64,000 bases of DNA. It comes from Eledone cirrhosa. Taxonomy: Eukaryota. The notes below the pieces were generated by a model, which had not been told where the DNA came from, made no database searches, and worked only from the letters and a program-made list of their open reading frames with translations. Below are positions 40,288-40,512 of the stretch, one piece after another; the stretch's first letter is position 1; each line of letters begins with the position of its first letter. The stretch covers positions 7,192,001 through 7,256,000 of the forward strand of contig OZ024754.1 in the NCBI GenBank assembly GCA_964016885.1, in the 5' to 3' direction. A program made the translations under genes and the position numbers.

Positions 40288-40399
40288 ATATATATATATA
40301 AGTGAAATAACAACCCAACCAGGAACTGGGCATATCAGAGTATTGACAAAGTTAAACACCTCAACAACATATGTACTCGTCTCTACCACACTAATTCGG

Positions 40400-40455
40400 A
40401 CTGCCTGAAGAGGTCACAGCCAAATATGGCTGTCAACCGAAATATATATAGCAGT
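40400..40455 (+). ncRNA. Type I hammerhead motif, intact
   Basis: ACUGC-CUGAAGA-GGU C ACAGCCA AAUA UGGCUGU CA ACC-GAA-AUAUAUAU-A-GCAGU; element 40297-40460 homologous to 63825-63980. Confidence 0.87.
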
Positions 40456-40512
40456 AATAAACGAAGCCAAATTTTAAACATTTGACTTATTTATTTTATT
40501 TTATATATATAT

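Follow-up and report, generated by a model that had tools for sequence, protein, structure and literature searches.

The closest described systems are the hammerhead ribozymes of Penelope-type retroelements. Thousands of such motifs per genome, most of them solo, were reported by Cervera and De la Peña 2014 (PMC4209133), and this work includes variants with a palindromic helix III, which do not cleave as monomers and show low cleavage as dimers, two molecules being arranged as a double hammerhead. A Penelope hammerhead that carries the start codon in stem II was found to cleave only with the protein of the element (PMC11167929). A head-to-head inverted arrangement has been described for Penelope insertions (PMC8557442; PMC3846280), and the in vivo role of Penelope hammerheads has been called unclear (PMC8557442; PMC11167929). 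Retrozymes are reported to derive from pLTRs, with one of nine tested dimers cleaved (bioRxiv 10.64898/2026.07.22.740005).

Recently active Penelope families are present in Octopus vulgaris (PMC13282606), a paper in which the available text has no occurrence of the whole word 'ribozyme', and the mention of octopus in Craig et al. 2021 concerns Naiads. No report of an octopus hammerhead was found in the literature searched, most subscription papers lying outside the coverage of the search. It is probable, at roughly 0.8, that the hammerhead motifs found in the window (the whole 64-kb stretch of DNA that was analysed) are dispersed remnants of Penelope-type, dimer-dependent type I hammerheads, a class that has been described.

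Hammerhead motifs and sequence context

A descriptor of the type I hammerhead gave six strict matches in the 64-kb window and no strict match in 100 locally resampled windows, in which matches to the loose descriptor averaged 0.34, and such motifs are thus not due to chance. Rfam gave no hammerhead match at the gathering score in the whole window or at E<=10 in positions 39900-40900; an Rfam match is a criterion of the library and not a mechanistic one.

The window has a GC content of 32.6%, is rich in microsatellites and SINE-like repeats and resembles animal intergenic DNA, and no host gene was found in it. One SINE-like family is represented at 58235-58608 (minus strand) and in more than 20 other places in the window. 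A second, with a tRNA-derived head, is found at 40011-40285, 21536-21684, 12115-12262 and 5931-6078, includes an Rfam tRNA match at 21548-21605 (29.6 bits), and is also common to organism C, one of the organisms represented in public runs. Fragments of non-LTR retrotransposon ORFs are present on the minus strand at 27052-27399, which we take to be a restriction-like endonuclease-type stretch and which has four homologues at 46-58%, at 32581-33021, presumably an L1/Tx1-like C-terminal stretch, and at 37236-37550, a stretch of three C2H2 fingers.

Repeat family A

Three of the motifs belong to one repeat family, here named A, which has the following features.

40400-40455, plus strand: hammerhead copy A1, with the predicted cut after A40450 (A17)
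40400-40404 and 40451-40455, plus strand: stem I of A1, ACUGC/GCAGU, 5 bp
40405-40411, plus strand: core CUGAAGA of A1
40412-40438, plus strand: stem II of A1, with an internal loop between its three basal and seven distal pairs
40439-40442, plus strand: GAAA of A1
40442-40449, plus strand: helix III palindrome of A1, 8 nt, including UAUAUA and then U16.1 (40449)
63925-63979, plus strand: hammerhead copy A2, with A17 at 63974 and an A.G mismatch in distal stem II
58012-58067, minus strand: degenerate copy A3, with core UUGAUGA, stem I broken, and stem II, GAAA and palindrome intact
40304-40399, plus strand: shared upstream part of A1, which is 77% identical to 63830-63924 and may have been the 3' end of the coding region in a parent ORF
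63830-63924, plus strand: upstream part of A2
40456-40461, plus strand: AATAAA of A1, with a tail of ~35 nt reaching to 40490 and weakly common to A3
63995-64000, plus strand: AATAAA in the tail of A2, which differs from that of A1
40286-40300: (TA)n at the 5' boundary of A1, a likely insertion target
40502-40549: (TA)n downstream of the A1 tail
40011-40285, plus strand: tRNA-derived SINE-like repeat beside A1, with the tRNA at 40023-40080 (25.4 bits, below gathering)

The features of a type I hammerhead (CUGANGA, GAAA, UH, and stems I and II) are complete in A1 and A2 and incomplete in A3. Both 40400-40455 and 63925-63979 have the perfect ACUGC/GCAGU stem I and the G10.1-C11.1 pair that had been claimed for them, and this pair is present in all three family A copies. 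The original prediction listed a third CUGAAGA copy at 58012 on the minus strand, but the core there reads UUGAUGA, with U3, and three of the five stem I pairs are broken; A3 is therefore probably inactive and is not a CUGAAGA copy. Its upstream sequence also differs from that of A1 and A2. The CUGAAGA core itself, which had been offered as support, carries little weight, as it is common among published Penelope hammerheads, with 30 occurrences in the available supplement of PMC4209133.

The hammerheads of A1 and A2 differ by three substitutions and one indel, and one of these changes breaks a distal pair in A2. The distal stem given earlier as ACAGCCA/UGGCUGU is thus only partly correct, the strands in A2 being ACAGACA/UGGCUGU with the A.G mismatch. 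Stem II had also been described as covarying, but a single two-sided change (C-G to U-A) was found in 17 pairs, and it lacks significance, as 151 of 500 shuffles did equally well. The loops are AAUA, AUGA and UUCAA, as had been stated, but do not vary freely: the last A is kept in all three copies, and G at 40425 is present in 93-98% of the placed family sequence.

A1 and A2 do share upstream sequence, though over about 96 nt at 77% (22 substitutions and one gap) and not over the ~110 bp first proposed; BLAST of 40304-40456 against 63830-63980 gave 82% identity and an E value of 2e-37. Between the two copies the hammerhead is better kept than the upstream part, with 3/55 versus 22/95 substitutions (Fisher p=0.006). 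The hexamer AATAAA, which had been noted downstream of A1 and A2, also follows A3, and lies 0, 15 and 1 nt past stem I in A1, A2 and A3, respectively, all within 15 nt of it; AATAAA is found in 3.2% of random 25-nt windows. The AATAAA of A1 and that of A3 may be of common descent.

A1 and A2 have different start points and different tails, and the family A copies are solo and ~190 nt long. Penelope-like elements may have a tail of 30-40 nt and tend to insert at (TA)n; the tail observed in A1 measures ~35 nt, the true element ends being hidden by repeats skipped in read placement. A target-site duplication was not resolvable in the TA flanks.

An exact 9-mer, TTGACTTAT, is present at 40482-40490 and also in the A3 tail (~57975-57983, minus strand), the tails being otherwise diverged. 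It sits ~30 nt past the cut site, and both a branch-point-like sequence and an element end are conceivable. An intron starting from GT at 40454-40455, with a TTGAC branch point, was considered and rejected for want of a 3' splice site and of any other support. An imperfect inverted repeat at 40590-40782 (82% over about 199 nt) ends in (TA)n, is single in the window and scores far below gathering on plant miRNA models; it may be a MITE-like element or have arisen by inverted insertion. The repeats at 63532-63813, 28519-28781 and 31165-31454 form a young family (92-96% identity) that ends at (TA)n, and the copy at 63532-63813 sits just upstream of A2.

Families B, C and D

A covariance model built from the three family A copies only, with E-values that are rough, gave 15 matches in the window at E<=1 and nine at E<=0.001, the nine being A1-A3 and six more.

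5514-5895: two family B copies inverted head to head, 382 nt at 94%
5786-5844, plus strand: hammerhead B1
5565-5623, minus strand: hammerhead B2
42895-43155, plus strand: solo copy of family B, its hammerhead (B3) at 42939-42997
25232-25289, minus strand: hammerhead B4, family B-like but degenerate, with a broken palindrome
37070-37134, plus strand: hammerhead C1, palindrome AUGCGCAU
4027-4086, minus strand: hammerhead D1, palindrome AUGAUCAU

The nine motifs in four families amount to about one per 7 kb of the window. In every one of them a 3-bp basal stem II is followed by C.C, C.U or, in A1, a C/CA internal loop. This mismatch in stem II may already be described by Lünse et al. The unpaired base between A9 and 10.1 is absent from all nine, and the model alignment places a UA cut site in all nine. 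G10.1-C11.1 is absent from families B-D, which have A-U, G.U or C.U instead.

Eight of the nine motifs have a self-complementary helix III (A15.1 to U16.1). Its sequence is AUAUAUAU in family A, AUAUGUAU in family B, AUGCGCAU in family C and AUGAUCAU in family D, and that of family B would include two G.U pairs on dimerisation. C1 was detected with a descriptor requiring just one helix III pair, and D1 with the covariance model, in which the inner four helix III bases are left unpaired. Self-complementary 4-mers make up 13.7% of the background, and their presence in four of four families is expected by chance at ~4e-4 if the families are independent. The real covariation is that of palindromes differing among the four families, and not that of stem II in family A.

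Eight of the nine motifs have AATAAA no more than 25 nt from the cut site. A (TA)4+ tract lies within 120 nt of eight of the nine, compared with 28% of random sites, in a test that is lenient because each motif offers two reference points and B1 and B2 represent one insertion.

The family patterns had no match in metagenome or viral contigs. The pattern of the 19-nt tail was found at 11 metagenome loci, of which ten had no core upstream and one (L011) was unrelated. The contig of the latter carries, at 2680-2950, a head-to-head inverted pair of an unrelated repeat and no long ORFs, and each arm of the pair ends in a hammerhead-like CUGAUGA...GAAA with U between A9 and stem II. This pair looks like a eukaryotic Penelope remnant.

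Comparison with described hammerheads

The motifs of the window share with the palindromic variants of PMC4209133 the type I topology, the CUGANGA/GAAA core, the 5-bp helix I, the long helix II and the palindromic helix III, and in family A also the G10.1-C11.1 pair. Like those variants, they occur mostly as solo copies, with opposite-strand pairs nearby. Examples in Fig. S3 of that paper are from Drosophila virilis, D. willistoni, Aedes aegypti, Marsupenaeus japonicus and Saccoglossus kowalevskii(2), and the combination of UA cut sites with no 9/10.1 base is also seen in the rows for M. japonicus and S. kowalevskii(2); the figure, as available, has no cephalopod row. However, the motifs described here have six nt between A15.1 and U16.1, which the published variants do not, and a parent ORF was not found here. 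The pyrimidine mismatch that follows the three basal pairs of stem II in all four families was not found described in the available portion of PMC4209133, in which the D. virilis hammerhead has a mid-helix bulge. As the min-HHR consensus has an unpaired A9/10.1 base (Cervera 2014), and none of the nine motifs has it, they were filed with the palindromic-helix-III variants and not with strict min-HHR.

In PAc (Poseidon of Anolis carolinensis, PMC11167929), the hammerhead lies in the pLTR, the start codon is in stem II and the cut is 26 nt downstream. Family A resembles PAc in having an AUG at the junction of loop 2 and stem II (40426-40428 in A1), 24-25 nt before the predicted cut, in all three copies. 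However, the frame of this AUG stops within 12-16 codons in family A, and families B-D have no AUG at this place. PAc also has a known ORF and a protein-assisted cleavage that has been tested, whereas the cleavage of family A is predicted only. A further likeness is to the non-LTR retrozymes (PMC7229834), which are of type I, have a weak palindromic helix III and reach high copy number in animal genomes, but these are defined by tandem arrays and circular RNAs, and no tandem unit was found in the window.

Predicted folding and cleavage

In the predicted fold of the A1 monomer, stems I and II form and the A15.1-U16.1 pair has a probability of 0.004. When two A1 or two A2 molecules were folded together, an intermolecular helix III of 8 bp with swapped stem I strands was obtained, and this double-hammerhead dimer was the cofold minimum, 7.2 kcal/mol below two monomers. 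Anatomy and folding thus back the original prediction as to the hammerhead reading, the predicted cut after A40450 and the need to test a dimer.

The transcript of 40380-40470 that had been proposed as test RNA is a poor choice, because it is predicted to misfold: UUCGG (40395-40399) captures CCGAA (40437-40441), with a probability of 0.64 in 40380-40470 and 0.54 in 40306-40480, and stem I is weakened, its closing pair having a probability of 0.24 in 40380-40470 versus 0.84 in 40400-40455. G>A at 40398 or 40399, seen in about 35-46% of the family sequence, would weaken the UUCGG/CCGAA pairing. The proposal that a blank cleavage assay should refute the hammerhead reading is too strict, as published Penelope hammerheads are inactive as monomers or dependent on protein, and such a result would not refute the reading of the family.

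In the mechanism proposed here, two copies would pair their palindromes into the 8-bp helix III and swap stem I strands to give a double hammerhead. In the tandem transcript of the parent element, two ribozymes would dimerise in this way and cut after A17, probably slowly or with the protein of the element. Reverse transcription from the 3' end of the element and insertion at (TA)n would then leave many short truncated copies, and these solo copies would subsequently decay, as in A3, B4 and the CpG changes. The genomic copies of family A are most likely inert fossils.

Abundance and variation of family A in public runs

Four public runs were compared with positions 40150-40620. In run X1, from organism A, the single contigs listed had depths of 2-10, whereas the contig depth summed over 40310-40469 was 2.4e5-6.4e5, a sum that means 'very many' only and gives no copy number. 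RAD reads of run X21, also from organism A, covered the same positions about 1,100-3,800 deep, with up to 213 start places. Family A is a very abundant dispersed repeat, and its earlier description as a three-copy family is true within this window but not of the public runs, where it is of very high copy number.

One base at 40435/40436 is missing in about 90% of the X21 reads, and the extra A of A1 is therefore private, the C.C mismatch of A2 and A3 being the norm. The list of variants leaves out 48 rows of the full table; those listed inside the motif are two loop positions and C40438>T, a CpG change beside the indel that is found in 56% of X21 reads compared with 8% in X1. Sharp read ends at 40393, 40396 and 40473 in X21 were considered as element boundaries and rejected, since they coincide with AATT sites (40393-40396 and 40470-40473) in a RAD library and are likely to be enzyme cuts. 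In run X17, which was guessed to be RNA, only the SINE was touched within 40150-40620, and this run has no bearing on expression.

Origin of family A

The family A copies are likely to be pseudo-LTR remnants of a Penelope-like retroelement, namely its 3' ends after truncation on the 5' side. As no RT or GIY-YIG gene was found, we infer membership of the Penelope-like group from the ribozyme design together with the insertion pattern; the Pfam scan, in which neither domain was detected, covered 90 of the 178 non-repetitive ORFs of the window. Neither a full-length copy of family A nor a tandem one was present in the window, and the only inverted pair in the window is that of family B.

The reading frame from 40306 is open through A1 for 59 codons, as is such a frame in 6.8% of shuffles. 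Of 13 variants listed in 40304-40399, nine are on third positions of the frame open in A1, seven are synonymous and none is a stop, and the seven synonymous changes compare with a neutral expectation of 22% (p=0.012, or ~0.035 allowing for three frames). Between the upstream parts of A1 and A2 there is no coding bias, with 6 of 22 substitutions synonymous. The 43-aa upstream frame had no homologue, with no match among 1.84 billion proteins, and its peptide had no Pfam match. Its Atlas neighbours are weak (0.88-0.91), and RVT_1, present on 11-18% of their members, is at most a lead. A coding origin of the upstream part is thus suggested by the variants, and is put no more strongly given the unbiased A1/A2 comparison, the lack of a homologue or Pfam match and the weak Atlas neighbours. 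With the family's missing base, the frame from 40306 would cross the ribozyme by way of the AUG at 40426-40428 and reach a stop at 40475-40477.

Alternative explanations

Family A could be a non-autonomous retrozyme amplified via circular RNAs, the window holding dispersed monomers of it, and we consider this unlikely. Type I hammerheads with a weak palindromic helix III are found in metazoan retrozymes, including mussel (PMC7229834), solo monomers are frequent in retrozyme families, which originate from Penelope pLTRs (bioRxiv 10.64898/2026.07.22.740005), and the upstream frame of family A lacks an ORF homologue, all of which would fit. However, none of the three family A copies in the window is in tandem, the 15 joints listed, of 20, include no 'goes back' joint across the hammerhead unit, A1 and A2 differ in start point and tail, the upstream part has a weak coding signal, and sister family B is inverted and not tandem. 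That the motif is kept for a role at the DNA level or in the host, as a TATA-like promoter, a hairpin or a co-opted regulatory ribozyme, is very unlikely. The helix III of family A does read as a TATA-like run, TATATATA has been proposed as a TATA box of the pLTR in rotifer Penelope (PMC3846280), and AATAAA follows eight of the nine motifs, but this slot is occupied by non-TATA palindromes in families C and D, which keep the full catalytic core, individual copies decay (A3, B4 and C>T at 40438), and no host gene was found nearby.

Hammerhead-bearing SINEs have been described in schistosomes (PMC6765202), and 40011-40285 could in principle supply the tRNA-derived pol III head of an element with the hammerhead as its tail, given that only 119 nt separate this tRNA-like head (25.4 bits, below gathering) from the A1 core downstream. 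This explanation is largely refuted and now hardly credible. A2 and A3 have no SINE head, leaving one of three family A copies beside a SINE, none of the four other SINE matches in the window has family A behind it, and a (TA)n tract separates the SINE from hammerhead A1. In run X6, from organism C, the SINE reached a depth of up to 3.9e5, whereas the hammerhead had 12-63 and 40304-40389 none; as organism C is rich in the SINE and almost without the hammerhead, the two are separate elements.

Implications

A more speculative reading, which we regard as improbable, would join a kin code in the palindromes with an off switch that senses copy number and with an undescribed structural subclass of stem II. 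Each ribozyme would dimerise only with its own family via its palindrome. The family A ribozyme would lie within a reading frame, with the AUG 24-25 nt ahead of the cut and AAUAAA shortly past it, and dimer-dependent cleavage, possibly in trans among the transcripts of thousands of copies, would be the off switch. The conserved pyrimidine mismatch in stem II would be the mark of the subclass.

Taken as dispersed remnants of Penelope-type hammerheads, the motifs extend a described class by one further animal lineage, and as such the finding matters little. The features worth keeping are the four-family series of palindromes and the shared stem II mismatch, as four families with one layout and different dimerising palindromes form a natural panel for family-specific dimerisation and for the role of the mismatch.
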